From NCBI GenBank assembly GCA_963822175.1, contig CAWGGJ010000003.1, positions 582,802-646,801 of the forward strand: a stretch of 64,000 nucleotides of DNA, in the 5' to 3' direction. Position 1 is the stretch's first letter. Every line of letters begins with the position of its first letter. The notes beneath the pieces were generated by a model that was not told where the DNA came from, made no database searches, and saw nothing but the letters and a program-made list of their open reading frames with translations. The stretch is from an uncultured Chloroflexia bacterium (GTDB lineage: Bacteria; Chloroflexota; Anaerolineae; Anaerolineales; UBA4823). The position numbers and the translations under genes were made by a program. Below are positions 3,393 to 62,580 of the stretch, in pieces.

Positions 3393-3863
3393 ATGTTAAC
3401 TCGTTGGGATCCATTCCAGGAAATGTTAAATCTTCGCCGCACTGTCGATCGTCTGTTCGACAACGCCAGCCAGGATCATGACTGGGCTCAATCTTCTGCG
3501 TGGGGTTTGGCTGTGGATGTTGTCGAAAACAAGGAAGACTTCATTGTTAAAGCCTCTGTCCCCGGGATTAATCCGGATGATCTGGATATCTCGTATGTTG
3601 ACGACACCCTCACCATCAAGGGTGAGATCAAGTCGGAAAATGAAGTCAAGGAAGACCAGTATCACCTGCGCGAGCGTCGCTATGGCACCTTCTCCCGCAG
3701 CATCACCCTGCCCACCAAGATCAAAGGGGATGCCATTGATGCTTCCTACCAAAATGGTGTCATAACCCTGCGGTTGCCCAAGGCTGAGGAAGTCAAGCCC
3801 AAGCGCATCGCCATCAAAGTCGGCGATCAAAAGATGATCGAAGGCAAAGTCAAAAGCAAATAA
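3393..3863 (+). CDS. Small heat-shock protein, Hsp20/alpha-crystallin family
   Basis: 156 aa with AAGGAGG 8 nt upstream of the ATG. Alpha-crystallin domain motifs: DVVENKEDFIVKASVPGINPDDLDISYVDDTLTIKGE, RERRYGTFSRSITLP, GVITLRLPK. Followed by a clean intrinsic terminator. Confidence 0.95.
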   Translation: MLTRWDPFQEMLNLRRTVDRLFDNASQDHDWAQSSAWGLAVDVVENKEDFIVKASVPGINPDDLDISYVDDTLTIKGEIKSENEVKEDQYHLRERRYGTFSRSITLPTKIKGDAIDASYQNGVITLRLPKAEEVKPKRIAIKVGDQKMIEGKVKSK

Positions 3864-3895
3864 CCGCTCGATCGCAGATCAAAGATTAAGGATTC

Positions 3896-3946
3896 GAATC
3901 CCCCACATCCATTGAATGACCCTAAGGAGTGGGGGATTCTTTTTTA
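3896..3946 (+). terminator. Rho-independent terminator of hsp20
   Basis: GAATCCCCCA (3896-3905) pairs with TGGGGGATTC (3930-3939), followed by a T6 run (3940-3945). Confidence 0.8.
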
Positions 3947-4307
3947 ATAAGCCTTCATGTAGGGGTTAGCAGATTAGTATTGGGGATATCAACTTTTATC
4001 GTGTGCAGCCATTATTTCATAAAGATTGTTTCATCAAGCTTCACTGCATTCGGTGTGACCAAACCATCGATGAACTCAACAGTTTATCCTGCATATTCGG
4101 AAGCAAGTGGCAAGAGATGTCGGTTGGTAGTGAGATTCTCACCAGAAAGGGACACATTGTCAGGCATCCTTACCGAGTGCCCTTTTTATGGTTTGAATTT
4201 CCGTTTAATGACCTACTCACACCCCGGTAGTCATTTTTGAATGTTCAGAATTAAATATTGCTAAACCAGGGTCTTTGGTGGTAAGTGGTACGAGTGATGT
4301 TTACGTT

Positions 4308-6467
4308 CTATTGCATAATGAGCGGCATGAACTTTATTATCCCCGCGAACAGATGCAGGGAGTTATTATGGTAATACAAGGACCACCGAATTTCTGCTAT
4401 CGGGGGGATCGTTACTGGTGAAAAATCGCCTGTCCGAGAGTTATACGACAGGAGGATAAAGTGATCACCAACCTGGGGAGTGTAGCCACCGGTAAAACTG
4501 ATATTGTATGGTCCATTCAAATAAAAATCAGTGGCAGTCATTTGGCTATAATCAGTGGCTGGTATGGTACCTTGAATCGCCAGGTTGGTGATTCCATCAG
4601 CTTCCTGCCTGAAGGTGGTCACCCAGATATTCCCGGTGGTCAGGTTCAGGATTCCGTAATTGTTAAACGTCCCTTCATTGCGAACTACATATGCACCGGA
4701 AGTCTGGATGGTAAATGTTGCCCCAGCCTGGTTGTTGAAGATGGCTGAATTATTCATACTCAAATAGCTGGTTTTAGTCCAGGTGGCAACACCGGCATTA
4801 TTGAATGTACGATCCAAAATGCTGATCTCTGCTGTACCGGTGAAGTTGACCGCACTGGTGGCATTGGTCACACCGCTGCCAGACATCGTCCCACTATCCC
4901 AGTTGATCGTATCAGCAGTCAGGTCACCCGCACCGGTCAATGTCCCACCGGTCATGTTCAGGATCGTTGTGGTGGCGGTGCTGCCGGTGCCCAGGCTTAA
5001 TATGCCGCTGATGATAGTAGTACCATCGGTGAACGCATACGTCCCATCGACGTTGACACTACTCACAATATCGACCGTTCCAGTCCCGCTGAAGGTTACC
5101 TCCCCACTCAGGTTATTCGTCCCACTTAGGCGTAAGCTGGCACCTGATGAGATATCAAATTCACCGCTGATGGTCGAGCTCGCCGTGTTGAGTAACTCCA
5201 GCGTTTCCGCCTCAATATTGACAATGCCGGAGGCAAAATTATTAAACCCTACATAGAATGTGGTATTCCCTGAGCTGCTCTTCGTGATGGTGCCGTAATT
5301 GTTAAACGTCCCTTGAATGCGAACTACATACGATCCGGAAGTCTGGATGGTAAATGTTGCCCCAGCCTGGTTGTTGAAGATGGCTGAATTATTCATACTC
5401 AAATAGCTGGTTTTGGTCCAGGTGGCAACACCGGTATTGTTGAATGTACGATCCAAAAGGCTGATCTCTGCTGTACCGGTGAAGTTGGCAATGGTGCTGG
5501 CGGTGGTTGAGCCACTGCCAGACATCGTCCCACTATCCCAGTTGATCGTATCAGCAGTCAAGTCGCCCGCACCGGTCAATGTCCCACCGGTCATGTTCAG
5601 GATCGTTGTGCTGGCGGTGCTGCCGGTGCCCAGGCTTAATATGCCGCTGATGATATTAGTACTGCCGGTGAACGCATACGTCCCATCGACGTTGACACTA
5701 CTCACAATATCGACCGTTCCAGTCCCGCTGAAGGTTACCTCCCCACTCAGGTTATTCGTCCCACTTAGGCGTAAGCTGGCACCTGATGAGATATCGAATG
5801 CACCGCTGATGGTCGAGCTCGCCGTGTTGAGTAACTCCAGCGTTTCCGCCTCAATGTTGACAATGCCGGAGGCAAAATTATTAAATCCTACATAGAATGT
5901 GGTATTCCCTGAGCTGCTCTTGGTGATGGTGCCGTAATTGTTAAACGTCCCTTGAATGCGAACTACATACGATCCGGATGTCTGGATGGTTAATGTTGCC
6001 CCAGCCTGGTTGTTGAAGATGGCTTCATCATTCATACTCAAGTAGCTGGTTTTGGTCCAGGTGGCAACACCGGCATTGTTGAATGTACGATCCAAAAGGG
6101 TGATCTCTGCTGTACCGGTGAAGTTGGCAATGGTGCTGGCGGTGGTTGAGCCACTGCCAGACATCGTCCCGCTTTCCCAGTTGATCGTGCCGGCAGTCAG
6201 GTCTCCTGCCCCTGTCAATGTCCCATTAGACAGGGACAGGCTTCCCACCTCTGCACTACTGGATACAGTGACCGTGCTACCGATATTAATGATGGCATCA
6301 TCATCGACACCAGGGACATGTCCGCAGCTCCAGTGGGTGAGATCATTCCAGTCACCGCTGACACCTGTCCAGGTGCAGCTGGCAGCCTGGGCGGTGTCGG
6401 TAGAAGAAATAAATAGGAAAATCATCAAAAAAAGTAATATGGATATGAAATGCATTCTGGTTTTCAT
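4308..6467 (-). CDS. Secreted repeat protein (beta-strand-rich, three ~213-aa tandem repeats)
   Basis: 719 aa with signal peptide MKTRMHFISILLFLMIFLFISSTDTAQA. Repeated block TLTGAGDLTA[GD]TINW[ED]SGTMSGSG...TFNN[AT]GVATWTKTSYLSMN...GTFNNYGTITKSSSGNTTFYVGFNNFASGIVNIEAETLELLN. Ends in FMPLIMQ. Family not recognised beyond Gly/Thr/Asn-rich beta-helix-like composition. Confidence 0.85.
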   Translation of the reverse strand: MKTRMHFISILLFLMIFLFISSTDTAQAASCTWTGVSGDWNDLTHWSCGHVPGVDDDAIINIGSTVTVSSSAEVGSLSLSNGTLTGAGDLTAGTINWESGTMSGSGSTTASTIANFTGTAEITLLDRTFNNAGVATWTKTSYLSMNDEAIFNNQAGATLTIQTSGSYVVRIQGTFNNYGTITKSSSGNTTFYVGFNNFASGIVNIEAETLELLNTASSTISGAFDISSGASLRLSGTNNLSGEVTFSGTGTVDIVSSVNVDGTYAFTGSTNIISGILSLGTGSTASTTILNMTGGTLTGAGDLTADTINWDSGTMSGSGSTTASTIANFTGTAEISLLDRTFNNTGVATWTKTSYLSMNNSAIFNNQAGATFTIQTSGSYVVRIQGTFNNYGTITKSSSGNTTFYVGFNNFASGIVNIEAETLELLNTASSTISGEFDISSGASLRLSGTNNLSGEVTFSGTGTVDIVSSVNVDGTYAFTDGTTIISGILSLGTGSTATTTILNMTGGTLTGAGDLTADTINWDSGTMSGSGVTNATSAVNFTGTAEISILDRTFNNAGVATWTKTSYLSMNNSAIFNNQAGATFTIQTSGAYVVRNEGTFNNYGILNLTTGNIWVTTFRQEADGITNLAIQGTIPATDYSQMTATDFYLNGPYNISFTGGYTPQVGDHFILLSYNSRTGDFSPVTIPPIAEIRWSLYYHNNSLHLFAGIIKFMPLIMQ
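4640..6233. repeat. Intragenic tandem repeat, ~639-bp unit, about 2.5 copies
   Basis: The same DNA block recurs with starts near 4783, 5413 and 6052 (see the near-identical shadow ORFs in the track). The protein copies differ at only a few residues. Confidence 0.9.
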
Positions 6468-29339: not shown

Positions 29340-29830
29340 GCCTGGTGAGCCTCGCGGCCACCTGCACAGTCTTTGTGCGGATCCCTTCAGCGAGGAGCGC
29401 ACTGTGCAATTTAGCCTCGCGAAGTGTTTTTCAAGCGAGGCTGGGAGGGGGTTGGTTTCTTATTCCATCCATCTACACCGCCGATGGATGAATCCACCGT
29501 CTACCAAAACCACGAAACCCGCTCAGCGGGTTTTCTTACATTAGCCGATGGATTTTATCCATCGGCACTCCTCCCCTACTTCCGCATTTTGAAATTTAAA
29601 TCCCAAATGGTTTCATCGGGTGTGGGGAGGTTGGGTGAGCTTCGCGGCCACCTGCACGGTCTTTGTCCGGTTCACTTCACCGAGCAGCGTACTGTGCAGA
29701 ATCCCGAGGAAATTGAGGAGACGAAGCCTCGTGAAATGTTTCCCGAGCGAGGTGAGGCAGGGGCTCTTCCTCCCTCTCCAAATGCTGGCTTTACATTTGG
29801 GGAGGGCTGGGCAAGCCTCGCGGTCCATTC
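29340..29830. repeat. Mosaic hairpin-repeat locus A
   Basis: Contains two copies of the GGTGAGCYTCGCGGCCACCTGCAC...ACTGTGCA module (29343-29410, 29633-29700). Hairpins: 29481-29499, GAAACCCGC-TCA-GCGGGTTTTC (29513-29535), GCCGATGGAT-TTT-ATCCATCGGC (29544-29566) and CCAAATG...CATTTGG (29770-29800 region). Confidence 0.85.
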
Positions 29831-29942
29831 AGCGAGGGAGAGGCCTACAGCATTGTGGTGTATTATACTTATCGATGATATTATGGGAATTACCATTTGA
29901 ATCTTGGGTACTTACCCTGAAAAAAATAGCATTCGGAGAAAA

Positions 29943-30686
29943 ATGCCTGATCTCAAAATAAATGCCGTGGTGAATGGTCATCGTTTATTTGGATTACTTT
30001 CTGGTGAAGGCGCAACCACAGTAATTCTTGACGCAGGCTTGGGCAGCACCTCGGAAGATTGGTCAAAGGTTCAGCCAGCCGTAGCCACCTTTTCAAAGGT
30101 TTTCAGCTATGACCGGGCAGGGCTGGGGCAGAGCGAAAAGGCTCCAGTTCCAAGGACTTGCCAGGACATCATTGGCGACCTCCGGGATTTATTGTTATCC
30201 ACAGACCTTCACCCTCCGTATATTCTTGTCTCCCACTCGTGGAGCGCGATCAATGCTCGCTGGTTCGCAAATCAATATCCTAATGAAATTGCCGGGATGG
30301 TCTTAATTGACCCCGTTCATGAAAATAAATACGCGCAATTTGAAAAGGTTATTTCTGCAGAGCAGGCAGGCCGTATGTGGGCGTCTGTCAAAGACCCATC
30401 TAAAAACGATGAGAACATTGACCGGATTGCAAGTATCGCCCAGATTCATGGCAAACAAACCCTGTTTGACTTTCCGCTGATTATCCTCACCCGTCTCACC
30501 GATTCCGATGAACTGAATCAGATCGAGACAAATTTACAGGCTGAATTTTTGAGGTTGTCAGCCCACAGTAGGCAATATTTTTCAAAATACGACGATCACT
30601 TTATTCAAAGATCAGAACCTGAGCTTGTGATCGATTCGATTTGTCAAATTGTAGAATCAATTAAGCCAGGCAGTATGGATTTCTAA
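29943..30686 (+). CDS. Alpha/beta hydrolase
   Basis: The track ORF starts at 29904. ATG 29943 has GGAG upstream. Motifs: VILDAGLGSTSEDW, YDRAGLGQSE, nucleophile elbow LVSHSWSAINA. Confidence 0.8.
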   Translation: MPDLKINAVVNGHRLFGLLSGEGATTVILDAGLGSTSEDWSKVQPAVATFSKVFSYDRAGLGQSEKAPVPRTCQDIIGDLRDLLLSTDLHPPYILVSHSWSAINARWFANQYPNEIAGMVLIDPVHENKYAQFEKVISAEQAGRMWASVKDPSKNDENIDRIASIAQIHGKQTLFDFPLIILTRLTDSDELNQIETNLQAEFLRLSAHSRQYFSKYDDHFIQRSEPELVIDSICQIVESIKPGSMDF

Positions 30687-31091: not shown

Positions 31092-33031
31092 GTGAGGAGG
31101 ATAAGCATGGCTAAGAAGCGAATGATCACGCTGGCACTGACGGTTAGTTTGCTTGGTGTGCTGTTGGCTGTAGCTGGAATGACAGTCAGGGCTCAAAACC
31201 AGCAGGGTACTTCTTCAACAAATCAGGAGTTGTCGATAATTCCGGAATTAATTGGCCAAGTGGGTGGAACTAGCTATGCCAGTGCCTGGCAAGGTAATTA
31301 TGCATACCTGGGGGTCGGCCCAAAGCTGGTGATCCTGGATGTCTCAGATCCTTCAACACCCTTCATCACCGGGCAGACGGGGATTTTTCCGGATATAGTC
31401 CAGGGAATAAGCGTGGTGGGTAACGTTGCTTATGTGGCTGATTATACTGGAGGGTTACGAATAATCGATATCACGAACCCGGATACCCCTGCGGAAATAG
31501 GCTTTTACGATACAGGAAGTTACGCTAGTGCGATAGCGGTTGCTGGTAAGTTATGCTTATGTATCTGATGGATGGGATGGGTTAAGGATAATTGACATTT
31601 CTACCCCTCTGCACCGGCAGAAGTTGGGTTTTACGACACAGCAGGGTCGACTTATGACACGGTGATTCAGGGAGATTATGCTTATGTAGCTGATGCTGAT
31701 ACTGGGTTGCGCATCATCGATGTTTCTGATCCGCGAATCCGGCGAAGTTGGGTTTTACAACACACCAGGCTATGCGAATGGGGTTGATGTAGCGGGGAGT
31801 TTTGCCTATATTGCCGATTCATTCAACGGGTTGCGCGTTATCGATATCTCCAACCCGGCAGCACCAGTCGAAGTAGGTTTTTTCATCACTCCTGGTCGAG
31901 GCATTGAAAGTGGTGGTGGAGGGAAGTTATGCCTACGTGGCTGGCAGCGATAGTGGATTACGCATTATCGATATCTCCACCCCTACTGCTCCCGTGGAAT
32001 TTGGCTTCCTTGTCACCCCCGGTTTAGCCACTGGAGTATCTCTGGGGGAGAGCCATGCATATGTCGCCAGCCAGTGGGGTGGTTTACGTATCATCGATAT
32101 TTCACAACCAGCCGATCCCGTTGAAGATGGATTTTACCTTGCAAAACCTGCCATCGCTGTAAAAGTGGAGCTGGCAGGCACCCATGCATATGTCATCGAC
32201 GTGGAGGGGCTCCATATAATTGACACCTCGGACCCAACAGCCCCAACCGCAAGTGGTTTTTGCGCTATTCCTGGAGGCCCCTTTGCACTTACCGTATCAG
32301 GTGGATATGCCTACGTTGCGGCTGGATCGAATGGATTGCGCATTATCGACATATCCAACCCGGCGGCTCCGTTGGAGGTTGGATTCTCAAACACATTGGG
32401 TGGTGACGAAGATGTGGCGGTAAGGGGGAACTATGCTTATATCGCAGAAAGCTCACCAGGCAGGCTACATGTCATAGATATATCCGATCCGACACAACCT
32501 GTGGATGTAACCTGGCGCGATACCCCGGGATATGCCTTGGGGGTGACGGTGGTGGGGTCTTATGCGTACGTTGCTGATGCAGACTTTGGGCTATTCATCT
32601 TTGATATAACTAACCCCGCCGATCCAGTACAAACCGGTTATGTTAATACCCCGGGTCTTGCCGATGATGTGGCAGTGGCCGGAAATTATGCTTATGTTGC
32701 CGATGGGCCGATGGGAGGCTTACGCGTTATCGATGTCTCCGATCATGCAAATCCCACGGAAGTAGGGTACTTCCTCACCGATAGTGCCAGGGAGGTGGTA
32801 TTCGCCTATCCTTATGTCTTCGTGGCTGATTTTTTTATGGGGTTAAGGATTATTGATGTATCCGACCCAACCCTGCCCATCGAAGCTGGATTTTACGATA
32901 CTCCCAATTATGCCGCGGGAGTGGCGTCATTGGGTCCATATATATCCGTCGCTGATTTAGAGGGCGGGTTGGATATTTTTTATCTGTACAGAAATATTCC
33001 CAGCGTATATCTGCCCCTAGCTCAAAAGTAA
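31092..33031 (+). pseudogene. LVIVD-repeat beta-propeller surface protein, disrupted by at least 4 frameshifts
   Basis: Fragments are 31092..31568, 31693..31953 and 31904..33031 plus unlisted pieces. Signal peptide MAKKRMITLALTVSLLGVLLAVAGMTVRA. About 14 units of G.YAYVAD...[14 protein letters not shown]. The repeat pattern continues across every ORF break in a different frame. Confidence 0.85.
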
Positions 33032-42400: not shown

Positions 42401-44420
42401 TTAATCCTTGATTAATGCCTCACTATATATGATAATATTACAAGCATATTCAGGGGAATATAGAAATGTGTAGTTTGGTTTTTCTTGAATTGTTGGGGTT
42501 GACTAGCCTAAATAAATTGGGACTGCAATGCGCCACCAATCTCGCCTTATACATCACTCTAGTCAGTTATTTTCTCTTTTTCTACGAGTAGATATGAGTT
42601 TTTATCCACCAGCATTAGATAAGGTTTGAGATTTTCTAGAGCGTATCAAAAGGGAGGTCGAAAATGTCTAAAAGTAAGCTGATCTTTCAGGGGGTTATTT
42701 TGCTCATTGCTGTTCTCATCTCCCCTATTCCTATTATTTCCGCAAGTCAACCCAGCCTTGTTGATCAACCCGGGGTGAATGGAAATGGGAATCCCGCATC
42801 CCCTCGACCAACCCTTTTCACTTTTACATCCAAAGCGGATAGCTATGTTGATCAACAGAATCCCACCACAAATTACGGCAAAGCTTACAACATAAGCGTA
42901 GCCAGCTTTCCCACAAAAAATGCATATCTGAAGTTCAACGTCACCGGTTTTTCTGGTGTCATTAAGCAAGCCATATTGCAGGTTTATGCAACCAATAAAT
43001 CGAATGCCATCATTTCAGTACGTGGGGTTGCAAACAACGACTGGGATGAATATTCGATTACATATTCCAACGCGCCTTCCCTTTCACGTATCATTGCAGG
43101 CTCGTCAAAGAAAATCACAAATCCAGGGTGGGTTTCCATTGATATCACCGCACTTGTAAGGGATACCGGTGTAGTTAGTATTGGCTTGACTTGTACCAAT
43201 GAAGTAATGACGAATCTCATGAGCCGGGAAGCGGGCTTGAATCAGCCAAAACTGGTTGTTTATGTCTATCCTTCTGGCACATCGACCCCCACAGCAACCT
43301 CCACCCCTACGAAAACGTTAACACCCACACCTACAAATACACCGACACCCACGGATACACCTACTGCAACAGCCACTCCTACAGACACTACCACTCCCAC
43401 TGTCACCTACACCCCGACTCCCACCGATACTTTTACTCCAACCCCCACAAGCACATATTCCCCAACACCCACCGACACATATACCCCGACCCCTACCGCT
43501 ACAGAAACCCCTACACCAACCGACACTAATACTCCCACCCCCACCAACACAACCGAACCTACACCTGACCCGATCATAGATCACTGCGGCACAATTTCTG
43601 CGGATGAGACCTGGCAGGCTGGTGACGTTCACCGGATAACCTGCACTGTCTCGGTAAACCAGGGGGTCACCCTGACCTTATCCCCAGGCGCGATTGTGAA
43701 GTTCATGAGCGAAACGGGTTTATTTGTGGATGGTAACATTGTTGCGAATGGGACGACGGAAGACCAAATTCACTTCACCAGCTATAAGGATGACAGTGTG
43801 GGTGGGGACAGCAACGAAGACGGGAACACCAGCAGTCCGGCTCCCGGTGATTGGGCTGAAATTTGGTTATATGGCACGGGTAATCTCAATCTCGATCATG
43901 CTATCGTCCGCTACGGAGGCGGTAGTCTTAGCTGGGAACACGGCACGATCATGGCTTACCTGACCAGTTCTCCCAGTGATGGTGTTACTGCCTCCATCAG
44001 TAACAGTGTCATTGAGCATAATACTGATGATGGGGTTTATCTTCGCGACGAGGACGCAACTACCCTTTCCAACTTATCGATTAACAGCTCCGTTATCCGT
44101 AACAACGGTCGTAATGGTGTTAGCACACAAGGCGTTGGGAGTGTTTTACTCGCTAATAACGTCCTCTCCAATAATGGGGCTACATATATAGGTTCCGCGG
44201 CTTTAATCTATGCTCAGACAGCCATCGTAAGTGGCAATACCTTTACCAATAACCCTTCTGGATTGTCTCTGGGAGCTGACAGTATCACACTGACAGATAA
44301 TCTATTTATCGATCAGACCTATGAGCACGCATTTATTAATTCAACGGATGACCTGATCTTCTATGGGAACAGTACCCATGGACAGCCACGCTTGTTCAAG
44401 TTGTATGGAGTCCATCTCAG

Positions 44421-46063
44421 ATGATGTCACCCTCGATTCTGCCATCCAGGTGTATGAGCTCGGATTGAGTGTCAATCCCGGAGCAACCCTGACCCTCCTT
44501 GAAGGCGTGCTTGTGAAATTATCAGAAAATTACAGCTCCAATCTCACAATTTTCGGTACCTTAAACATCCAGGGGACAGAGTCCAATCCTGTCGTGATCA
44601 CGTCATTGAAAGACGATACATACGGCGGAGACACGAATAATGACGGAGCCTCCACCTCACCGGCTCCCGGTGACTGGGGTGAAATTTGGCTATATGGCAC
44701 AAGTAATCTCAATTTCGCTCATGCTATCATTCGCTATGGAGGCGGTAATCTTAGCTGGGAACACGGCACGATCATGGCTTACCTGACCAGTTCTCCCAGT
44801 GATGGTGTTTCGGTTTCCATCAGTAACAGTGTCATTGAGCATAATACTGATGATGGGGTTTATCTTCGCGATGAGGATCCTACCACCCTTTCCAACTTAT
44901 CGATTACCAACTCCACGATCCGTAACAACGGTCGTAATGGTGTTGGCGCACAAGGCGTTGGGAGTGTTTTACTCGCTTATAACGTCCTGTCTGAAAATGG
45001 ATTAGTTTATCCAGTTTCAGCGGCTGCAATCTATGCTCAGACAGCCATTGTAAGTGGTAATACCTTTTCCAATAACCCTTCTGGATTGTCTCTGGGAGCT
45101 GATAGTATCACATTGACAGATAATCTATTTATCGATCAATCCTATGAGCATGCATTGATTAATTCCTATAATAACCTGATCTTCTATGGGAACAGTACTT
45201 CTGGCCAGCCACGCTTGTTCAAGTTGTATGGAGTCATCTCAGGTGATGTCACCCTCGATTCTGCCATCCAGGTGTATGAGCTCGGATTGAGTGTCAATCC
45301 CGGAGCAACCCTGACCCTCCTTGAAGGCGTGCTTGTGAAGTTATCGGAAAATTACAGCTCCAATCTCACAATTTTCGGTACCTTAAACATCCAGGGGACA
45401 GAGTCCAATCCTGTCGTGATCACGTCATTGAAAGACGATACATACGGCGGAGACACAAATAATGACGGAGCCTCCACCTCACCGGCTCCCGGTGACTGGG
45501 GTGAAATTTGGTTATATGGCACGAGTAATCTCAATTTCGCTCATGCTATCATTCGCTATGGAGGCGGTAATCTTGGTTGGGAACATGGTGCGATCATGGC
45601 TTACCTAACTGGATTCTCCAGTGATGGTGTTTCGGTTTCCATAGTAACAGTGTCATTGAGCATAATACTGATGATGGGGTTTATCTTCGCGATGAGGATC
45701 GCTACCACCCTTTCCAATTTATCGATTACCAACTCCACGATCCGTAACAACGGTCGTAATGGTGTTGGCGCACAAGGCGTTGGGAATGTTTTACTCGCTT
45801 ATAACGTCCTGTCTGAAAATGGATTAGTTTATCCGGTTTCAGCGGCTGCAATCTATGCTCAGACAGCCATCGTAAGTGGTAATACCTTTTCCAATAACCC
45901 TTCTGGATTGTCTCTGGGAGCTGATAGTATCACATTGACAGATAATCTATTTATCGATCAATCCTATGAGCATGCATATGATTAATTCCTATAATAACCT
46001 GATCTTCTATGGGAACAGTACTTCTGGCCAGCCACGCTTGTTCAAGTTGTATGGAGTCATCTC
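44421..46063 (+). repeat. Two near-identical ~822-bp modules (modules 2 and 3 of the RHS N-terminal region)
   Basis: The landmark TTGTATGGAG recurs at 44401, 45223 and 46046. Modules 2 and 3 differ by only a handful of substitutions and indels. Module 1 (~43600-44420) and module 4 (46064-~46640) are more diverged. Confidence 0.9.
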
Positions 46064-47260
46064 AGGTGATGTCACCCTCGATTTGCCATCCAGGTGTATG
46101 AGCTCGGATTGAGTGTCAATCCCGGAGCAACCCTGACCCTCCTTGAAGGCGTGGTTGTGAAGTTACCGGACAGGCGAGCTCCAATCTCACAATTTATGGT
46201 AACCTTAAACATCCAGGGGACAGAATTTAAATCCTGTCGTGATCACGTCTTTAAAAGACGATACATACGGCGGAGACACAAATAATGACGGAGCCTCCAC
46301 CTCACCGGCTCCCGGTGACTGGGGTGAAATTTGGTTATATGGCACGGGTAATCTCAATCTTGATCATGCCATTGTGCGCTACGGAGGCGGTTATCTTGGT
46401 TGGGAACATGGCACGATCACTGCCTATATAACCTTATACCCAAGTGATGGTGCTTCGGTTTCCATAAGTAACAGTGTCATTGAGCATAATTTATATGATG
46501 GAGTATTTCTGCACGATGAGGACGCGACTACCCTTTCCAACTTATCGATTACCAGCTCCACGATCCGCAACAACAATTGGAATGGAGTTACCACCGAAGG
46601 CATAGGGATCGGATTTGCCATAATAAGAGGAAGCTCAATATATAATAGCGCAGGATATGGCGTTTACAATGGAAATATTAGTAATGGTTTCGACGCCCGC
46701 TATAACTACTGGGGCTCGGACAATGGTCCTGCTCCTTATGGTCAAGGGGATGCCATCAACACGTACCAGGAGTGGGATCCCATTTGCGAATGTGTCGTCA
46801 CTAAACCAGCAGTGATATTCACCCCTCCGCTGGATTCTTCCGGTCAGATTGTCGGTCCACCACCCGCCCAGACTTACGGCACCCCCTCCACCACCACGAG
46901 CATTTCAGTGGCTGACCCCGTCAACGTGGTTTTCGGCAACTACACCTACCAGTATACCGACCTGGCTTTCCCGACACTGGGTGAGGGCTTTACCTTCCTG
47001 CGTACCTACAACTCCGCCAGCACTGATTTTGGTCCGCTAGGCTTAGGCTGGACGCATAGTTATGACATCTTCGCCACCCAACCCACCACCAACACGGTCG
47101 TTATCCTGCGCGAGGATGGACGCAAGGACATGTACACCGATGCGGGTGGAGGCAATTACCTGTCACCCCCCGGCGTCTACGACACATTACGCTTCGTCAC
47201 CGACCACTTCGTGCTCACCCGCAAAGACCAGGCGGTCTATTCTTTAACCCGGATGGCACA

Positions 47261-50200
47261 TTGGCTAGCCTGGCCGATCATACTGGTAACACAACGGCAT
47301 TTTCTTATTCAGGTGGCAACCTGGTCTCACTCACCGAGCCCGCCGGTCGACAGGTCACTTTCACTTATTCAGGGAACCTGCTTACACAGATCAGCGATCC
47401 TCTTGGACGCACAGTCAGTTTTAGTTACACCGATAGCTTGTTGACCAGCGTGACCGATGTCAATGGTCATAGCACCACCTATGCCCACGATGGTTCTGGT
47501 AAGCTGGAGTCGATCACCGATGCCAACGGTCATACATTTGTCCACAATTTCTACGATACCGAAGGGCGCGTGGTTGAGCAGCGCGATGCGCTGAATAACC
47601 TGACCACATTCTCTTATGATCCCACTACACGCATCAACTCGGTCACCAACCCGCTTAATTTCACCACCCTTTACCAGTATGACAGTGCCTATCGCCTGGT
47701 CTCTGAGACTGACCCTTTAGGTTATACCCAATCGTATGCCTTTGACGCCAACAACAACCAGATCAGCGCCACCGATAAGCGCGGTAATACCACCACTTTC
47801 AGCTATGATACCCGCGGTAATGTCCTCACCATCACCGCTCCTCTGGGAGTTGTCCGAAGCTTCAACTATGATGATCATAACAACCTGCTCACCGAGACCG
47901 ATCCGCTCAGTCATTCAACCAGCTATGCTTATGATGGAGCAGACAACCTAACCAGCATCACCGATGCTTTGAATAACACCTCCACATTTACCTATAACTC
48001 TTTGGGGCAGGTGCTCGCCTCCACTGGTCCACGCGGGTACACAGCCTCCTTCGGCTATGATGCCTATGGTCACCAGGATAGCCTCACCGATTATTATGGA
48101 AATGAAACTACCTTCATCTTTGATATCGTCGGACGCAAGCTGAGCCAGACCGACGCCCTGGGGCATACCACCACTTACTCGTATGATAATGCCAACCATT
48201 TGTTGACGGTTGATGAGCCAATGGGTCGCTCAACCAGCTACACCTATGACCTGGTCGGGAACCGCCTGTCTGTTACCGACCCAATGGGTGGCAACACTGC
48301 CTCCACCTACGATGCCAAGGACCGCATGGTAACGGTCACTGACCCCTTAGGACATGTCACCACCTATGGCTATGATGCGCTCAACAACCAGGTCTCCATT
48401 ACGGATGCATTGGGGCACGTCACCACCTTCGAGTATGATGCCCTTAACCGCAATATCTCCACGATTGATCCGATGGGGCATACCACAAGTTCCCAGTATG
48501 ACCCGGATGGCAACCGCACCCAGTTAATTGATGCTAATGGTAACAGCACCTATTATGTTTATGATCAGCTCAGTCGCCTGACCTCTGTTACCGACGCTGC
48601 TGGTGGGACTGTGAGCTACACTTATGACATGGTCGGCAATCGCCTCTCCATGATGGATGCCAACTCTCACACCACCAGCTACACCTACGATGCTCTGAAC
48701 CGGTTGGCAACCTTCACAGATCCCTTGAGCTTTGTCACCAGTTATACCTATGACCAGGCGGGCAACCGCATCACCTGGAATAAGCCTGATAATTCCACCG
48801 TCCATTACACCTACGACCGGCTTGACCGGCTGGAAACAGTGACTGCCACGGGGATCAACATCAGCTACACCTACGATGAGCTGGGGAACCGCCTTACTTT
48901 GGTCAATTCAACCGGCACCACCAGCTACACCTATGACGATCTGAACCGTTTGGTCGAGGTCGTCAACCTGCAAGGCAATCTGGATTATGCCTACGATCTC
49001 AACAATAACCGCACCTCGTTGACGTACCCGGATAGCAAGACTGTCATCTATACCTATGACCCGGCAAATCGTTTGATCACCGTAACGGACTGGGCTTCTC
49101 AAATCACGACCTATAGCTATGATTACACCAACCTGCTGACCGGGATCGCCTACCCCAACGATGTTGTTGCCAGCTATGCATATGACGAAGCCAGCCGTCT
49201 GATAAGCATTGGGTACACCGGGCCTGCTCCCTTGGAATCCTTCAGCTATACCCTGGATGCGGTCGGGAACCGGCTGAGCATGGCTGACGCAGATGGGAAC
49301 ACCAGCTATACCTACGATGTTCTATACCGTCTCACCGGTGTCAGTTATCCAGTTGGATCCCCTGCCAGTGTCAATTATGCCTACGATCCAATGGGCAACC
49401 GGCTGAGCATGACTCAGGATGGTGCTACCACAGCATATACTTACGATGCAGTGGATCGGCTGTTGTCCACTGATACCAGTGGAATGGTCACCAGCTTCAC
49501 CTGGGATAATAATGGCAATATGCTCACCAAGGGGGGCCAGTCCTTCACTTGGGATGCCCTTAATCGCATGGTCGCCTGGACAGATGGCACGAACACATCC
49601 AGCTATACCTACAACGGTGATGGTGTGCGCCTAGGTCGGACAGTGAATGGTTCAACCACAGCATATCTGCAGGATCTGGCTGCTGGTTTGCCCGTGGTAC
49701 TGAGAGAGACCACTTCAGGCGTGAACACAGATAATGTTTATGGAAATGACTTGATCACCTCCATCGATAGCAGTGAAATTTCCTCCTTTTACCATACCGA
49801 TGGACTGGGCAGCACGCGCCTGCTGACCGATAATAGCAGTGCTGTCACCGACCGCTACAGCTACGATGCCTTTGGTTCACCTCGCACCCATGCCGGCTCG
49901 AGCACCCAGCCCTTCACCTTCACCGGCGAGCAGGTCGACCCCGAGGCAGGTCTGGTGTTCTTGAGAGCAAGATATTATGATCCAAGAACTGGCAGATTTA
50001 TTAGCTCTGATCCATTTTTTGGAGACATTATTCTCTCCCAATATATAAATCGCTACACATATACACATAATCGACCAATAATTACCACAGATCCTAGTGG
50101 TAAGTTTCCTCTCATCGTTTTAATTGGTGGTGGAATAGTTGTATATAAGGTGGGTAATTATGTTGTAAACTACGTTGATTCTTATATTAAAGCAATTTCA

Positions 50201-50602
50201 TATAATTCGTTTAAGCAATCTATGTGGAATGCGACAGACGCAGAAACAGCTAGCTATTATCAGTTCAAAGCTGCAGAATATAGTCATGAATTTACACAAT
50301 CTGTAAAGAAAGATACACTTCCTCCATATGGCACATCAATGAACTTTAGCCCAGTTCCTCAAAGCTTTTCGGAAGTGGATGCAATCGGTAGAATTATTAC
50401 CTTTGTAGAAGAAAATACCTTAAAATTTACTGATTGGTTATTTAGTCAAAATAGAGGAGATGTAAAAGGTGAAATGACTGAAAATTTGTATCAAGGGGAG
50501 TCTTCTATTCAAAGATCTCAACTTGAAATAAATTTCTATGGTTCTGCCTTGGGAGCAAGAGGAGGCGTGTATTTTGGTATCCCAGCTAGCCATGGAAAAT
50601 AG
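47261..50602 (+). CDS. RHS repeat-associated core fragment with C-terminal tip (largest intact piece of the toxin gene)
   Basis: 1113-aa ORF with dozens of YD repeats (e.g. TYSYDALNRL, YTYDELGNRL). Core end FLRARYYDPRTGRFISSDPF...NRYTYTHNRPIITTDPSG is followed by ~165 aa of unrecognised sequence. Its true 5' continuation is in ORF 46239..47444. Confidence 0.9.
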   Translation: MASLADHTGNTTAFSYSGGNLVSLTEPAGRQVTFTYSGNLLTQISDPLGRTVSFSYTDSLLTSVTDVNGHSTTYAHDGSGKLESITDANGHTFVHNFYDTEGRVVEQRDALNNLTTFSYDPTTRINSVTNPLNFTTLYQYDSAYRLVSETDPLGYTQSYAFDANNNQISATDKRGNTTTFSYDTRGNVLTITAPLGVVRSFNYDDHNNLLTETDPLSHSTSYAYDGADNLTSITDALNNTSTFTYNSLGQVLASTGPRGYTASFGYDAYGHQDSLTDYYGNETTFIFDIVGRKLSQTDALGHTTTYSYDNANHLLTVDEPMGRSTSYTYDLVGNRLSVTDPMGGNTASTYDAKDRMVTVTDPLGHVTTYGYDALNNQVSITDALGHVTTFEYDALNRNISTIDPMGHTTSSQYDPDGNRTQLIDANGNSTYYVYDQLSRLTSVTDAAGGTVSYTYDMVGNRLSMMDANSHTTSYTYDALNRLATFTDPLSFVTSYTYDQAGNRITWNKPDNSTVHYTYDRLDRLETVTATGINISYTYDELGNRLTLVNSTGTTSYTYDDLNRLVEVVNLQGNLDYAYDLNNNRTSLTYPDSKTVIYTYDPANRLITVTDWASQITTYSYDYTNLLTGIAYPNDVVASYAYDEASRLISIGYTGPAPLESFSYTLDAVGNRLSMADADGNTSYTYDVLYRLTGVSYPVGSPASVNYAYDPMGNRLSMTQDGATTAYTYDAVDRLLSTDTSGMVTSFTWDNNGNMLTKGGQSFTWDALNRMVAWTDGTNTSSYTYNGDGVRLGRTVNGSTTAYLQDLAAGLPVVLRETTSGVNTDNVYGNDLITSIDSSEISSFYHTDGLGSTRLLTDNSSAVTDRYSYDAFGSPRTHAGSSTQPFTFTGEQVDPEAGLVFLRARYYDPRTGRFISSDPFFGDIILSQYINRYTYTHNRPIITTDPSGKFPLIVLIGGGIVVYKVGNYVVNYVDSYIKAISYNSFKQSMWNATDAETASYYQFKAAEYSHEFTQSVKKDTLPPYGTSMNFSPVPQSFSEVDAIGRIITFVEENTLKFTDWLFSQNRGDVKGEMTENLYQGESSIQRSQLEINFYGSALGARGGVYFGIPASHGK

Positions 50603-58021: not shown

Positions 58022-59005
58022 TTAAATGCCAGGCTCTTGCTCACTCTCCCAATCTTTGGTATACCAGCGCAGGTAGTCTTCAACATGTGCCTGCCAGTAT
58101 TCCTCATTATGGTATCCCGCAAACATATGCCACTCGTGTGGAAGATTATATTTGGTCAATATACTCTCCAGCCATCTGGCTGGTGGCATTAAGTTTGGAT
58201 CACTGGCACCGATATCCAGATATATCCTTGGTCTTAAATCTTCCGGCATTTGTTTAAGCCACTGGTGGATCTCTTTCACATCACTTTGAAACACAAAACC
58301 ACTGTGTACTCCTAGTGCGCTGAATAGTTCCGGGTGTGACATCACCAGGCGAACCGCCCAGGCTCCCCCCCTGGATAATCCACCAACCGCCCGATGTGCC
58401 CGGTCCGGGATCGTGCGATAATGCTCATCCACCCAGGGGATCAGCGCTTGCTCCACTGCAATCCCAAAATGATCATAGGCTGGCTCGTGCCAGACACGAT
58501 CCCTGGGCATCACGACGATGAATGGGGCAGCTTCTCCTGCTGCGATCAGCCGGTCTGCAATTTCGGGCACTCCCAGGCGATCCCACTGATCATCCGTATA
58601 GGTCTGACCGTGGATCAGGTACAGGACTGGATAAGCGAGCTCAGGCTGCTCTTTATAGCACGGTGGCAGGTAGATCCGGAAGACCAGTGGTTGTGGCAGC
58701 AGGTCTGTCTTGAACTCACTCACCTCCACTGTCCCCCCTGCCTTCATGCAGGCGGTCAGGGTAGGCGTGGACATTGGAGGCCTTGGGGTGCGGCTGGAGG
58801 TGGGCGTCTGAGTTGGCAGGCGTGGCGTTTGCGTGGGTGTGCTGGTCAGTGTGGATGTGGCTTTTACTGTTGCAGTCAGCGTCGGCGTAGGTGATTCCTG
58901 TACACCCGAATCCGTAGGCATGCTTTGCTGCATTTGTAAGCTAGCTACACCACACGACGGTATAAGGAAAATGATCAAACATGCTGCAAGGAGGAATTTC
59001 CACAC
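58022..59005 (-). CDS. Esterase-family lipoprotein (putative esterase/CE1-like alpha/beta hydrolase)
   Basis: Lipobox LIPSC, then a PT-rich linker. Motifs: YPVLYLIHGQTYTDDQWDRLG and GGLSRGGAWA (GxSxG). Confidence 0.8.
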   Translation of the reverse strand: MWKFLLAACLIIFLIPSCGVASLQMQQSMPTDSGVQESPTPTLTATVKATSTLTSTPTQTPRLPTQTPTSSRTPRPPMSTPTLTACMKAGGTVEVSEFKTDLLPQPLVFRIYLPPCYKEQPELAYPVLYLIHGQTYTDDQWDRLGVPEIADRLIAAGEAAPFIVVMPRDRVWHEPAYDHFGIAVEQALIPWVDEHYRTIPDRAHRAVGGLSRGGAWAVRLVMSHPELFSALGVHSGFVFQSDVKEIHQWLKQMPEDLRPRIYLDIGASDPNLMPPARWLESILTKYNLPHEWHMFAGYHNEEYWQAHVEDYLRWYTKDWESEQEPGI

Positions 59006-59130
59006 CCTCGCAGTTTACCACAAGATATCCCATGCCTGGTAAATTAAACCCACGTGAGTGTGTGAAAGGGTTCACCCAGATTCAATCTTTCGCTGGTAAA
59101 ATTGCTGGATATTTACCCATGGAGAAACCT

Positions 59131-60414
59131 ATGAAGAAGTTATTCCTGTTTTTACTGCTCATGGCTGTCGGTCTGGTTGGATGCATCCCCCAGCCACAGG
59201 CTACTCCCACCGTTACTGCCACCAGTGAGCCCCGCCCGGTTCCCACAGTCGTGCTATCAGTCCCGACAGAATCCACCTTTCTGCCTGACTCTGGCTGCAC
59301 CGTGATCACGAAGCAGCCTACGCCAGGCCCGACTGCTGAATCGATCTATCCACCTGTCACGGATGCAGATCACAGCAAAGGACCTGAAGACGCCAAGGTG
59401 ACGATCATCGAATATTCCGATTTTCAGTGACCCTACTGCGCCCAGCTTGCTCCCGTGATGGAGCAACTCCTCAAGCAATACCCGGATGATCTGCGTTTTG
59501 TTTATCGCCAGTTTCCCCTCATCGGTACACCCGAAAATCCGTTCCACGATAAAGCCGCCCTCGCCACCCAGGCTTCTGAAGCCGCCGGTAAACAGGGTAA
59601 ATTTTGGGAAATGCATGATGTCCTCTTCAATGAACAAGCGGATTGGTCGGCAATGACGGTTGCAGATTTTGAGCAATGGCTGATCCAAAAAGCTGGAGAG
59701 ATCGACCTGGATGTGGAAGAATTCTCAAAAGATCTGAATAGTGAAGAACTAGTGAAGCTGGCCCAGGCCGGCTGGGATGATAGCCAGAAAATGGGCTTGT
59801 CGGGTACACCATCCCTATTCATCAATGGCCAGGCCTGGCCGAGTAATGTGAGTATCAATGCCTACAACCTGTCAACGCTCATCGAGCTAACCTTGCTGGA
59901 AGATCGCCAATTCACCCAGTGCCCTCCGATGGCCATTGACCCCACCAAACAATACGTTGCCACCCTGCACACTGAAAAGGGGGATGTGGTCATCGAGCTT
60001 TTCGCTGACAAAGCCCCCCTCGCCGTAAATAGCTTCATCTTCCTGGCCGAGAATGGCTGGTTCGATGGTGTTACCTTCCACCGGGTCATCCCCGGGTTCG
60101 TTGCCCAGGCAGGTGACCCCAGTGGGACGGGTTATGGCACACCGGGCTATGCCTTTAAGAACGAGATCTCCCCCGACCTGAAATTCGATGGTCCGGGTGT
60201 ATTAGGCATGGCCAATGCCGGCGCCGATTCAAATGGCAGCCAGTTCTTCATCACCTACGCTGCCCAACCCACACTGGATGGCAGTTATACCGTTTTCGGT
60301 CATGTGATCGAGGGCATGGACGTGGTAACCAGCCTCACCGAGCGGGATCCAGCCTCTTCCGGCGACCTTCCACCAGGTGACAAAATCCTCAGCATAACCA
60401 TCGAGGAAAAATGA
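59131..60414 (+). CDS. DsbA-like thiol:disulfide oxidoreductase fused to cyclophilin-type PPIase; lipoprotein; in-frame TGA (codon 100) at the first Cys of CPYC (possible Sec)
   Basis: Track ORFs 58981..59430 and 59455..60414 are in the same frame, separated by TGA 59428-59430. Read-through gives VTIIEYSDFQ-TGA-PYCAQLAPVMEQLLKQYPDDLRFVYRQFPL...GKFWEMHDVLF (DsbA/Thioredoxin_4). The C-terminal part reads GDVVIELFADKAPLAVNSFIFLAENGWFDGVTFHRVIPGFVAQAGDP...GMANAGADSNGSQFFI (cyclophilin). GGAG lies 6 nt before ATG 59131. Lipobox LVGC. Confidence 0.75.
59447..59466 (+). promoter_or_regulatory. SECIS-like stem-loop downstream of the in-frame TGA
   Basis: TTGCTCC (59447-59453), loop CGTGAT, GGAGCAA (59460-59466). 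A perfect 7-bp stem beginning 16 nt after the TGA, extendable by A-T and G-C pairs if C59446 bulges. Confidence 0.45.
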
Positions 60415-60471
60415 GTTTATCCCTTCCAGGAACAGGTTTTTCCCATCTGCTCCTGGAAGGATGATCCTGTT

Positions 60472-61908
60472 ATGTCCACACCTTACCCATCCAACCAGCC
60501 TTCAGCCACACCGATCAACGGACCAGCTCTGATACAGCTGGTATTCAGCGCCTTGGCAGCCATACTATTGCTGGGTTTGGCGGTTCTGATCGCTGTTTCG
60601 GGTATTTTCCAGTATCTCAGCCAGGAATTTAGCAGCACCGAGCTCACCCAATCAATGATGGTTGCCTCCAGCCTGGCATTTGCCGGGGTGTTGGTACTGC
60701 CCTCTGCCTGGTACGCCTGGGTGGATTTCGCCAATCCCCAGGCAGTACACAAATCGCGGCCCGAACAACGTGACTATACTCTTATACTCACCTTGCTGGT
60801 ACTTGTTGGTGTATCTCTCGCCCTATTGCTGGGTAGCTGGGCTTCACAAAATGACCAGCTTTCATGGTTCCTGCTTCCGTTCCTTAACATCATCGCCACT
60901 GGGTTGCCAGCTTTATGGCTGGTCTATATTGGCACGCATGGCCTGCTTTTCGGTTCACCCAGGCGTCGATGGGGGGTATTTGCCAGCGGTCTGATCTTGA
61001 GCCCAGCGATCATCCTGGTTCTGGAGCTGTTTGTAATCATCGCCCTGCTTTTCCTGGTCCTTTTTTGGGCGATGGTGGATCCCAATATCTCTAGCCAGCT
61101 CACCAACCTGGTATTTCGATTGCAAAATTCTACGCTCAACCCGGATGATGTTCTGAATATTCTCTCTCCCATGTTCCTCCGTCCAGGGATAATATTTCTC
61201 GTCTTTGCCTTCATTTCGGTCATCATCCCCCTGATCGAGGAAGCATTAAAACCCATTGGTGTATGGTTCCAGGCTGGTCAAAAAATCACCCCAGCCCAGG
61301 GGTTTGCCTACGGTGTTCTCTGCGGGGCTGGTTTCGGTCTCTTTGAAAACCTTGGAAACACCAGTGTCGGGGGCGAAATGTGGGTGGTCCTGGCCTCCAC
61401 CCGCATCTCCACGCTGCTCCTGCATAGTCTGACCACTGGCCTGGTGGGTTGGGCATTAGCGTCTGCCTGGAGCCAGAAACGATACATGCGCCTCGGTCTT
61501 GTTTACACCTTTGCTGTATTATTGCATGGCTGTTGGAATGGGTTGGCAGTTTTAAGCTCCCTTAGCTCCCTCGAATTCCAGGCAAACATTCCCCTACCTG
61601 ATTTCCTGCTCCAGATCGGAAATCTGGCCATCATCGGGATAGTTGGCTTGGGTGCATTTAACCTCGTCCTGTTTATCAGCTTTAGCACATTTTTACGCAA
61701 TAGCCTTAAAAGACAATCACCACCATCAACAGGGTTAGATGGTTTTAACACACCCCTCATCGACGAACCCACTTCAGTCGAGTACGGTGAAATTTCAACC
61801 CTTTCCACGCAGTCGCCAAGCCGATCACCTGGATTGGAACCATCACCCCCTCCGATCGTCGATGACAACCCCTTCACGATTGAAGAAAATCCTCCTTCTA
61901 CCGGATGA
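60472..61908 (+). CDS. PrsW-family intramembrane protease
   Basis: 478 aa, polytopic. Motifs: IEEALKPIG (EExxK), FGLFENLGN, LLHSLTTG, LLHGCWNG. Pro/Ser-rich cytoplasmic tail. Confidence 0.75.
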   Translation: MSTPYPSNQPSATPINGPALIQLVFSALAAILLLGLAVLIAVSGIFQYLSQEFSSTELTQSMMVASSLAFAGVLVLPSAWYAWVDFANPQAVHKSRPEQRDYTLILTLLVLVGVSLALLLGSWASQNDQLSWFLLPFLNIIATGLPALWLVYIGTHGLLFGSPRRRWGVFASGLILSPAIILVLELFVIIALLFLVLFWAMVDPNISSQLTNLVFRLQNSTLNPDDVLNILSPMFLRPGIIFLVFAFISVIIPLIEEALKPIGVWFQAGQKITPAQGFAYGVLCGAGFGLFENLGNTSVGGEMWVVLASTRISTLLLHSLTTGLVGWALASAWSQKRYMRLGLVYTFAVLLHGCWNGLAVLSSLSSLEFQANIPLPDFLLQIGNLAIIGIVGLGAFNLVLFISFSTFLRNSLKRQSPPSTGLDGFNTPLIDEPTSVEYGEISTLSTQSPSRSPGLEPSPPPIVDDNPFTIEENPPSTG

Positions 61909-61914
61909 AACCTG

Positions 61915-62580
61915 ATGAATTTAATGCTCTATATTATTGACTTGATCCTTCACATGGATAAATATCTTGGTCAGATCATCCAGGAGTATGGCACCTGGAC
62001 ATACCTGATCCTGTTTATTGTGATTTTTATGGAAACCGGTTTTGTGGTTACCCCTTTCCTCCCAGGCGACTCGTTGCTGTTCGCTGCAGGTACTTTTGCT
62101 GGTATGGGATACTTGAACATTGGGATTTTATTCGCTCTCATGGCGATAGCCGCCATCGCCGGGGATACGGTCAATTATTGGATTGGTCATAAAGTCGGCC
62201 CACGTGCTTTTAGTGGTAATGTCCGCTATCTTAAAAAAGAGTACCTGGACCGCACCCATGCATTTTATGAGAAGCATGGTGGCAAGACCATAATCATCGC
62301 TCGCTTCATCCCCATTATCCGTACCTTCGCCCCTTTTGTTGCTGGTGTGGGTGCAATGACCTATGGCAGGTTCGTTTCTTTCAACGTAATCGGTGGCCTG
62401 GCATGGGTGGCATTGTTCACCCTCGGGGGTTATTTTTTTGGCAACCTGCCCTTCGTACAGGATAATTTCTCCATAGTCATCATTGCAATTATCCTCATTT
62501 CAGTCATGCCTGCTGTCATTGAGTTACTCAAAAGCCGCAGGAGACCCAAACAGGAACCGGAACCCCCTGCCAGTGTTTAA
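61915..62580 (+). CDS. DedA family membrane protein
   Basis: 221 aa. Motifs: FVVTPFLPGDSLLFAAG, HGGKTIIIARFIPIIRTFAPFVAG. Confidence 0.9.
   Translation: MNLMLYIIDLILHMDKYLGQIIQEYGTWTYLILFIVIFMETGFVVTPFLPGDSLLFAAGTFAGMGYLNIGILFALMAIAAIAGDTVNYWIGHKVGPRAFSGNVRYLKKEYLDRTHAFYEKHGGKTIIIARFIPIIRTFAPFVAGVGAMTYGRFVSFNVIGGLAWVALFTLGGYFFGNLPFVQDNFSIVIIAIILISVMPAVIELLKSRRRPKQEPEPPASV

Follow-up and report, generated by a model that had tools for sequence, protein, structure and literature searches.

A candidate selenocysteine codon in the active site of a DsbA-cyclophilin fusion lipoprotein gene from uncultured Anaerolineales

Does an in-frame TGA at the catalytic site of a predicted thiol oxidoreductase gene end translation, or is it read as an amino acid? 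The gene in question occupies 59131-60414 on the plus strand of a 64,000-nucleotide (nt) stretch of contig CAWGGJ010000003.1 (positions 582,802 to 646,801; assembly GCA_963822175.1), which comes from an uncultured Chloroflexia bacterium placed in the Anaerolineales and which we refer to throughout as the window. Its sequence is divided between two open reading frames (ORFs), 58981-59430 and 59455-60414, that share one frame, and the TGA at 59428-59430 is the sole break between them. On the evidence set out below, we hold with high confidence that 59131-60414 is one intact gene for a predicted exported, lipid-anchored foldase, and that its UGA at 59428-59430 would be recoded as selenocysteine (Sec).

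Read through from the ATG at 59131, the gene comprises 427 codons, including the putative Sec100, and ends at a TGA terminator of its own (60412-60414). The translation across the break runs ...KVTIIEYSDFQ-[TGA]-PYCAQLAPVMEQLL..., and orthologues match the window gene in length and architecture. A preliminary description of this DNA had reported an in-frame TGA between the two ORFs, lying at the first Cys position of a CPYC motif within a 427-residue fusion of signal peptide, linker, DsbA domain and cyclophilin. The coordinates and the translation agree with this account, as do the codon count, an LVGC lipobox and matches to Pfam families PF13462, PF01323 and PF00160. The TGA itself aligns with the first Cys of the CPYC, CPFC and CPGC motifs of orthologues and of the structure 3gyk, so the UGA predicted to encode Sec100 falls at the N-terminal nucleophilic position of a U-P-Y-C motif whose resolving residue, Cys103, is encoded at 59437-59439.

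The same TGA recurs among the relatives of this gene. We searched 5.8 billion protein clusters and examined the best 120 matches. The great majority (110 clusters, 77-98% identity) are only 317-319 amino acids (aa) long and start just after the position of the TGA, because the DNA of such loci carries DFQ-TGA at that site; full-length matches number 10 and are only 62-69% identical. The annotations of all 110 nearest clusters fall short of full length; an example at NCBI is PWB55683.1, a 318-aa 'hypothetical protein'. At the DNA level, eight species-representative metagenome-assembled genomes (MAGs) of Anaerolineae at 54-77% identity (loci L001, L002, L003, L009, L010, L012, L013 and L031) read DFQ-TGA-PYC or DFQ-TGA-PGC, and a DNA pattern for D-F-Q-TGA-P-Y-C found the same TGA in more than 15 fusion-type metagenome contigs. 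In the alignment of TGA-type fusion genes, all 23 carry it. The pattern also retrieved about 100 genes for stand-alone DsbA-like proteins in which this TGA recurs; one locus (L143) has two in tandem, at 5073 and 5747, each with DFQ-TGA-PYC and a downstream hairpin of its own.

Orthologues carry either TGA or Cys at this column, with one exception. More than 15 of them, along with 3gyk, have the first Cys of CPYC, CPFC or CPGC there, and a single orthologue (P0002, locus L203) has Asp, in a DPFS motif that has lost both redox residues. Locus L203 shares the gene order upstream of the window gene (deoxynucleoside kinase, M3 peptidase, esterase), and L204, a Cys form, shares the order downstream (PrsW-family protease, DedA/VTT, lipoate-ligase-like protein); by these shared neighbourhoods, both are positional orthologues of the window gene. 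Each of these, whether of Cys or Asp type, is one uninterrupted ORF. In a neighbour-joining tree, the backbone of the window gene's clade consists of TGA forms, with Cys forms and the Asp form nested inside it, and a separate, deeper clade is all Cys.

We compared the window gene with nine to thirteen TGA-type relatives by the ratio of non-synonymous to synonymous change (dN/dS). The ratio was 0.08-0.17 over the approximately 100 codons 5' of the TGA and 0.05-0.09 on its 3' side (0.07-0.12 for the remaining DsbA portion alone), with a synonymous difference (pS) of 0.63-0.78, near saturation. Both halves of the gene are under purifying selection. Since a stop in the catalytic site would otherwise be incompatible with long-term selection of this kind on both halves, these data argue that the UGA is read through.

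A hairpin lies within the coding sequence just past the TGA. The sequence TTGCTCC-CGTGAT-GGAGCAA (59447-59466) forms a perfect stem of 7 base pairs (bp) between 59447-59453 and 59460-59466, closing the apical loop CGUGAU (59454-59459), with a free energy of -9.1 kcal/mol on its own; two extra pairs lie below a bulged C. Coordinates and fold match the hairpin as first described. The model of the bacterial selenocysteine insertion sequence (SECIS) calls for an apical loop of 3-9 nt on an upper stem of 4-16 bp, a G as the first or second base of the loop, with G or U as the usual next base, a distance of 16-37 nt from UGA to loop, and a free energy of -7.5 kcal/mol or lower (Zhang and Gladyshev, summarised in PMC13188914). 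The window hairpin lies within all of these limits: its loop is 6 nt and its stem 7 bp, the G stands at loop position 2 and is followed by U, the loop begins 23 nt past the UGA, and its stability fits as well. The preliminary description had likened the placement of the hairpin to that of the E. coli fdhF SECIS; the sequence and the 16-nt spacer that it gave stand, but the comparison has to be recast, as the relevant spacing is the 23 nt between UGA and apical loop. From the fit to this model, from covariation and from RNAalifold, we regard 59444-59468 as a candidate bacterial SECIS element.

To measure covariation, we aligned 23 distinct fusion genes of the TGA type without gaps. Across these, 97.5% of stem cells are paired, and four of the seven stem pairs show compensatory double changes (16 cells). 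The covariation score of 0.295, against 0.105 ± 0.019 in shuffled alignments, was reached by none of 500 shuffles, and sliding the 3' arm by 1-3 columns as a control lowered pairing to 24-57%. RNAalifold independently predicts the same stem. Pairing is kept even where the encoded residues change: GCT/GAG (Ala..Glu) has become GCG/GCG (Ala..Ala) in L009 and L013 and GAG/GCT, an Ala/Glu swap, in L131, and CCC/GAG has become TCC/AAG in L031, exchanging Pro for Ser together with Glu for Lys. The loop, CGUG[A/U]U, is invariant in all 23 genes, third-codon positions included.

The hairpin is also tied to the TGA. Of 120 TGA-type genes for DsbA-like proteins, 75% have a perfect hairpin that complies with the model; none of 13 Cys orthologues does, and among codon-shuffled controls the share is 4%. 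In the Asp orthologue L203 the stem has acquired one mismatch, in the Cys orthologue L204 it is gone, and in the Cys form L011 (CPYC; L011:10331-10390) a degenerate hairpin with two mismatches is left. An exception is the Cys form L007 (CPGC), in which the 7-bp hairpin at L007:10325-10384 is intact. 'Fossil SECIS' elements are known from Cys forms that arose from Sec forms (PMC1794560), and we read the L007 hairpin as one of these; the remnants in L007, L011 and L203 together suggest repeated, recent loss of Sec. Conservation of the TGA, pairing of Sec with Cys, selection on both sides of the codon and a covarying SECIS-like hairpin thus support the selenoprotein reading put forward in the preliminary description.

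What would the protein do? In a Pfam scan run with Cys substituted at the TGA position, Thioredoxin_4 (PF13462; residues 79-242, 86.2 bits against a cut-off of 23.2) and DSBA (PF01323; residues 91-243, 66.2 bits, cut-off 25.6) both span the TGA, and together they delimit a DsbA-like domain at residues 79-243 (59365-59859). Its cis-Pro motif GTP is encoded at 59803-59811, and T226 and P227 are invariant among relatives. The best matches of this part in the PDB (E = 1e-14 to 1e-9) are 3gyk ('27 kDa outer membrane protein'), 4pwp/4pwo (DsbA), 3eu3 (B. subtilis BdbD) and 4gxz (ScsC), all of them extracytoplasmic Cys proteins whose CPYC/CPxC motif occupies the same alignment columns as U-P-Y-C; none is fused to a cyclophilin. 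As a structural guide we used an AlphaFold model of P0004, a Cys orthologue, and of this only the DsbA region, since the model as a whole, built on a 10-sequence alignment, has a mean predicted local distance difference test (pLDDT) score of 49.9; within the DsbA region, 10-residue blocks mostly average 56-94. In this model Cys97, the equivalent of Sec100, caps helix 98-113 directly after strand 87-93, and a stop at the TGA would therefore cut through the thioredoxin fold.

The remainder of the protein carries a Pro_isomerase domain (PF00160; residues 278-420, 148.8 bits, cut-off 21.7), which places a cyclophilin-type peptidyl-prolyl isomerase domain at 59962-60390. Cyclophilins in the PDB match this C-terminal half at E = 1e-34; judged by these matches, it is a bacterial-type cyclophilin. 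The protein contains the motifs FHRVIPGFVAQAGD and GSQFFIT, which do not vary among relatives and which we take to be the catalytic Arg/Phe/Gln motif of cyclophilins. From its signal sequence, the mature protein is predicted to be tethered by a lipid outside the membrane, and from the domain content we infer a bifunctional envelope foldase with Sec in place of the nucleophilic Cys.

SelB acting with a SECIS is, to our knowledge, the only bacterial mechanism in which a hairpin follows a UGA at a Cys position. By analogy with that established pathway, the stem-loop at 59447-59466, inside the coding sequence and with its loop 23 nt past the UGA, would act as a bacterial SECIS, bringing SelB and its Sec-tRNA(Sec) cargo to the ribosome. 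This would replace C-P-Y-C by U-P-Y-C in the active site and put Sec at the start of helix alpha-1, as its solvent-exposed nucleophile. Compared with Cys, Sec has a lower pKa and is both a better nucleophile and a better leaving group, which makes thiol/disulfide exchange faster. Sec100 could pair with Cys103 in a selenenylsulfide and accelerate such exchange on secreted substrates, while the fused cyclophilin might isomerise prolyl bonds of the same clients. For this protein we predict selenium incorporation, SelB dependence and lipidation from sequence comparison and the known pathway, and it may act mainly as an oxidase or as an isomerase/reductase.

Several results weigh against decoding as Sec. 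Folded as a single sequence, a 63-nt segment reaches -13.0 kcal/mol against -11.5 ± 2.4 kcal/mol for shuffles (z = -0.62), and 46 of 200 shuffles are as stable. The folding proposed in the preliminary description does show the stem but gives it no statistical support, so the significance of the hairpin derives from the comparison of orthologues. No Rfam family matches the hairpin, either at the gathering threshold over the window or at an E-value threshold at the site, where the sole match nearby was a chance small RNA (E = 9.5); such a lack is expected, because bacterial SECIS elements are diverse. Nor could any selA, selB, selD or tRNA-Sec gene be linked to this genome or to any TGA-type contig: none lies within the window or in the flanks of the TGA-type loci, ARAGORN found no tRNA-Sec in the window and six loci, and the Rfam scans of the window and of the site did not yield one either. 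A tblastn search of 201 sequences (the window and 200 loci, 1.9 Mb), with E. coli SelA, SelB and SelD as queries, returned a single match, a SelA in L036, which is a Chloroflexota MAG without a TGA-type gene.

Sec-using Chloroflexota are documented in the literature, and with the L036 protein as query SelA proved common in Chloroflexota MAGs (at least 120 clusters), although none of the 120 clusters listed could be assigned to a TGA-type contig. The L036 gene itself (L036:13312-14703, with counterparts in L201 and L202) encodes a SelA 45% identical to that of E. coli. It lies in a conserved neighbourhood of a stand-alone cyclophilin, a BTAD regulator, SelA and an M24 peptidase, and no selB, selD or tRNA-Sec gene was found next to it.

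How well do other explanations account for the TGA? TGC and TGA are one base apart, and the window does contain fragmented genes (an RHS/beta-helix run at 42664-50602 and LVIVD-repeat pieces), which would suit a pseudogene produced by a TGC- or TGT-to-TGA nonsense mutation, or by a sequencing error, in a Cys-type DsbA-cyclophilin gene. Yet more than 20 loci from independent assemblies, with identities as low as about 55%, share this TGA, and the 110 nearest clusters are cut at it; the frame is kept on both sides with dN/dS of about 0.05-0.17 at saturated synonymous sites, and the covarying hairpin accompanies the codon. Given its recurrence in many independent assemblies and the purifying selection, we reject the simple TGC-to-TGA mutation that the preliminary description had kept as its alternative, and consider decay or error of any such kind extremely unlikely. 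Purifying selection bears equally on the possibility that the locus makes two products, with a lipopeptide of about 99 residues ending at the UGA and translation re-initiating at the GUG or AUG of the loop (59455/59458) to yield a cytoplasmic 318-aa protein. The loop CGUGAU and the G after it do hold an in-frame GUG and AUG (UUG in other clades), which gene callers take as starts. However, no Shine-Dalgarno sequence precedes 59455, and the 318-aa product would be left without signal peptide, strand beta-1 and both active-site residues, although what remains of the DsbA part is strongly constrained and the Pfam domains span the TGA. The Cys- and Asp-type positional orthologues are continuous, and the stem covaries, for which the display of a start codon gives no need. 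We regard re-initiation as very unlikely.

A general change in the meaning of UGA, whether by reassignment or by suppression with Trp, Gly or Cys, has nothing in its favour beyond the in-frame TGA itself. TGA ends 8 of 26 long open frames in the window, among them this gene (60412-60414) and the next (61906), in line with the earlier statement that it serves as an ordinary stop there. A scan of the window for other in-frame TGAs gave no credible candidate, and the terminators of orthologues vary freely among TAA, TAG and TGA; reassignment has next to no probability. SECIS-dependent insertion of Cys or of another residue instead of Sec would need, for example, a tRNA-Sec-like tRNA(Cys) with a UCA anticodon and a SelB-type factor, and a Cys-inserting tRNA system of such a kind has reportedly been found (Vargas-Rodriguez et al. 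are said to have described it in 2018, RNA Biol 15:471). The lack of Sec-synthesis genes linked to TGA-type genomes would be compatible with such a system. But it is rare and no data point to it, established selenoproteins agree with this case in position, motif and family, and SelA is common in Chloroflexota MAGs, leaving this option a small chance at most.

If the UGA is decoded as Sec, the protein joins a known family in an unfamiliar form. A 'DsbA-like protein' selenoprotein family (PF01323, UxxC) was first reported in 2005 by Zhang, Fomenko and Gladyshev, from the Sargasso Sea metagenome (PMC1088965). In 2016 it was known from 41 organisms among the approximately 5200 sequenced (PMC5029168), and a 2026 review (PMC13188914) includes it. 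Like DsbA-like form 1, the window protein has a DSBA/Thioredoxin_4 fold, Sec predicted at the first position of UxxC and Cys homologues, and its candidate SECIS lies within the ORF just past the UGA and has a G in the apical loop. It differs in its C-terminal cyclophilin, its N-terminal lipoprotein signal with a Pro/Thr linker, and its membership of an Anaerolineae clade. Its SECIS, with a spacing of 23 and the loop CGUGAU, is also unlike those of stand-alone DsbA-U subfamilies, one of which has a spacing of 34 and the loop AGGU. Compared with the E. coli fdhF SECIS and the bacterial consensus, it shares a stem-loop 3' of the UGA in the ORF and a small loop with G then U, but its sequence does not resemble fdhF, we identified no bulged U in it, and its lower stem has only 2 bp below the bulged C.

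Also close to it are the Cys-type Anaerolineae fusions (P0004/L204, P0007, P0013, L004, L011 and others). These share its length and domain order at 62-69% identity as well as its neighbourhood, with an esterase upstream and a PrsW-family protease, DedA/VTT and lipoate-ligase-like protein downstream; they differ in having TGY for TGA and in lacking the SECIS hairpin except as the fossils in L007 (intact) and L011 (degenerate). NCBIfam NF041057, the 'Rcas_1661 family thioredoxin-like (seleno)lipoprotein', matches residues 8-235 with 81.4 bits (E = 7e-23) against a curated cut-off of 190, and by this score the window protein is a relative but no member of that family. Both are Chloroflexota-type lipoproteins with a thioredoxin-fold UxxC/CxxC motif, and their alignment covers the signal peptide; unlike the window protein, NF041057 spans 247 positions and lacks the cyclophilin domain. 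It is named after a Roseiflexus gene, and its members appear as 'DsbG-like protein, UxxC' in PMC13188914. The literature searched mentions no selenoprotein fused to a cyclophilin and no selenoproteins of Anaerolineae, and the cyclophilin fusion of a Sec-containing DsbA seems undescribed.

A crude scan of all loci for bacterial SECIS elements gave mostly noise, save for further DsbA-type matches and one gene in L178. The latter, on the minus strand (reverse-complement approximately 3359-4486), joins a lipoprotein signal, a rhodanese domain (PF00581) and a DsbA/Thioredoxin_4 domain in a single ORF, which TGA interrupts twice in frame: in the active-site loop of the rhodanese (ILYCA-U-GNEG) and at DFQ-U-PYC. 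It is a probable fusion selenoprotein with two Sec residues.

The remaining features of the window gene fit those of its orthologues. A Shine-Dalgarno-like GGAGA, read from the sequence, lies at 59121-59125, 5-6 nt before the ATG at 59131; there is an alternative in-frame ATG at 59119, and the 'MEKxMKK' N-termini of L135, L157 and L031 reflect the same start arrangement. The predicted lipoprotein signal peptide, MKKLFLFLLLMAVGLVGC, is encoded at 59131-59184, with its lipobox LVGC at 59173-59184. In orthologues the signal consists of M-[RK]-K, a hydrophobic stretch and then L-[AS]-G-C or S-A-C (variants AGC, SGC, SAC and AAC), and all full-length TGA-type orthologues have a lipobox [LVI][ASTVI][GAS]C about 100 codons 5' of the TGA. 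The Pro/Thr-rich linker that follows (59185-59364) is conserved at the protein level in orthologues, lies in the upstream region with dN/dS of 0.08-0.17, and has the conserved motif GCTV..PTPGPT..P..D.KGP, kept in full-length TGA-type loci as GCTV..PTPGPT..DW.KGP.

Downstream, an inverted repeat at 60422-60460 (plus strand; 14-nt arms, 93% complementary) begins 7 nt past the stop codon of the gene, between it and the PrsW-family gene, and is not followed by a T-tract. At least eight orthologues have a hairpin of differing sequence at the equivalent intergenic spot, whether their stop is TAA or TGA. Purines dominate the 3' arm (GGAAGG or GGGAG), which may serve the downstream gene as ribosome-binding site. 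We regard this hairpin as probably an operon-internal terminator or regulator and no part of the recoding signal. A scan of 58900-60600 for promoter and terminator consensus sequences gave no match. The gene belongs to a conserved, envelope-related cluster of an esterase lipoprotein, the window gene, the PrsW-family protease and DedA; among the neighbouring window genes examined, no DsbB or VKOR gene adjoins it. The DsbA-cyclophilin, PrsW-family and DedA/VTT genes (59131-62580) all lie in one frame, separated by TGA stops (60412 and 61906) and short stop-free spacers. This shared frame looks coincidental, because orthologues use other stop codons.

Elsewhere in the window, the ORFs 29424-29900 and 29904-30686 (the latter an alpha/beta hydrolase) share a frame and are split only by the TGA at 29898-29900; they are probably two adjacent genes, because no Cys-type motif or Pfam domain extends across the junction. 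The adjacent or overlapping ORFs at 42664-50602 (CBM96 with beta-helix, beta-helix/NosD, beta-helix with DUF6531, and 18 RHS repeats) resemble a single giant RHS-type toxin gene split up by frameshifts, which could be real decay or long-read homopolymer errors, and the LVIVD-repeat pieces at 31092-31568 and 31904-33031 have a similarly broken appearance. A 'tRNA-Pro(ggg)' of 96 nt that ARAGORN placed at 2214-2309, in overlapping ORFs, is probably false, with no Rfam tRNA match even at E <= 1.

Taken more broadly, with somewhat better than even confidence, this would be a membrane-anchored, extracytoplasmic Sec-DsbA/cyclophilin foldase new to the catalogues searched and the dominant form in a large environmental clade of Anaerolineales. 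Gene callers would have cut it to a 318-aa 'cyclophilin', and it would have reverted to Cys repeatedly or decayed to Asp, leaving fossil SECIS elements; together with the L178 gene, it suggests that the U-type DsbA is a modular redox unit of the envelope. The principles of recoding and of selenoprotein biology are unchanged by it. Reading the UGA as Sec would correct a systematic annotation error, as more than 100 public protein clusters now held as 318-aa cyclophilins or hypothetical proteins would really be lipoprotein foldases of about 427 residues. The natural Sec, Cys and Asp variants at positional orthologues, with intact, fossil and decayed SECIS elements, would offer a system for studying Sec/Cys exchange and SECIS evolution. 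For the Anaerolineae, which are abundant in sediments, soils and digesters, this would make the class a further lineage with selenium in an exported enzyme of the envelope, and would imply a selenium requirement for their oxidative protein folding.

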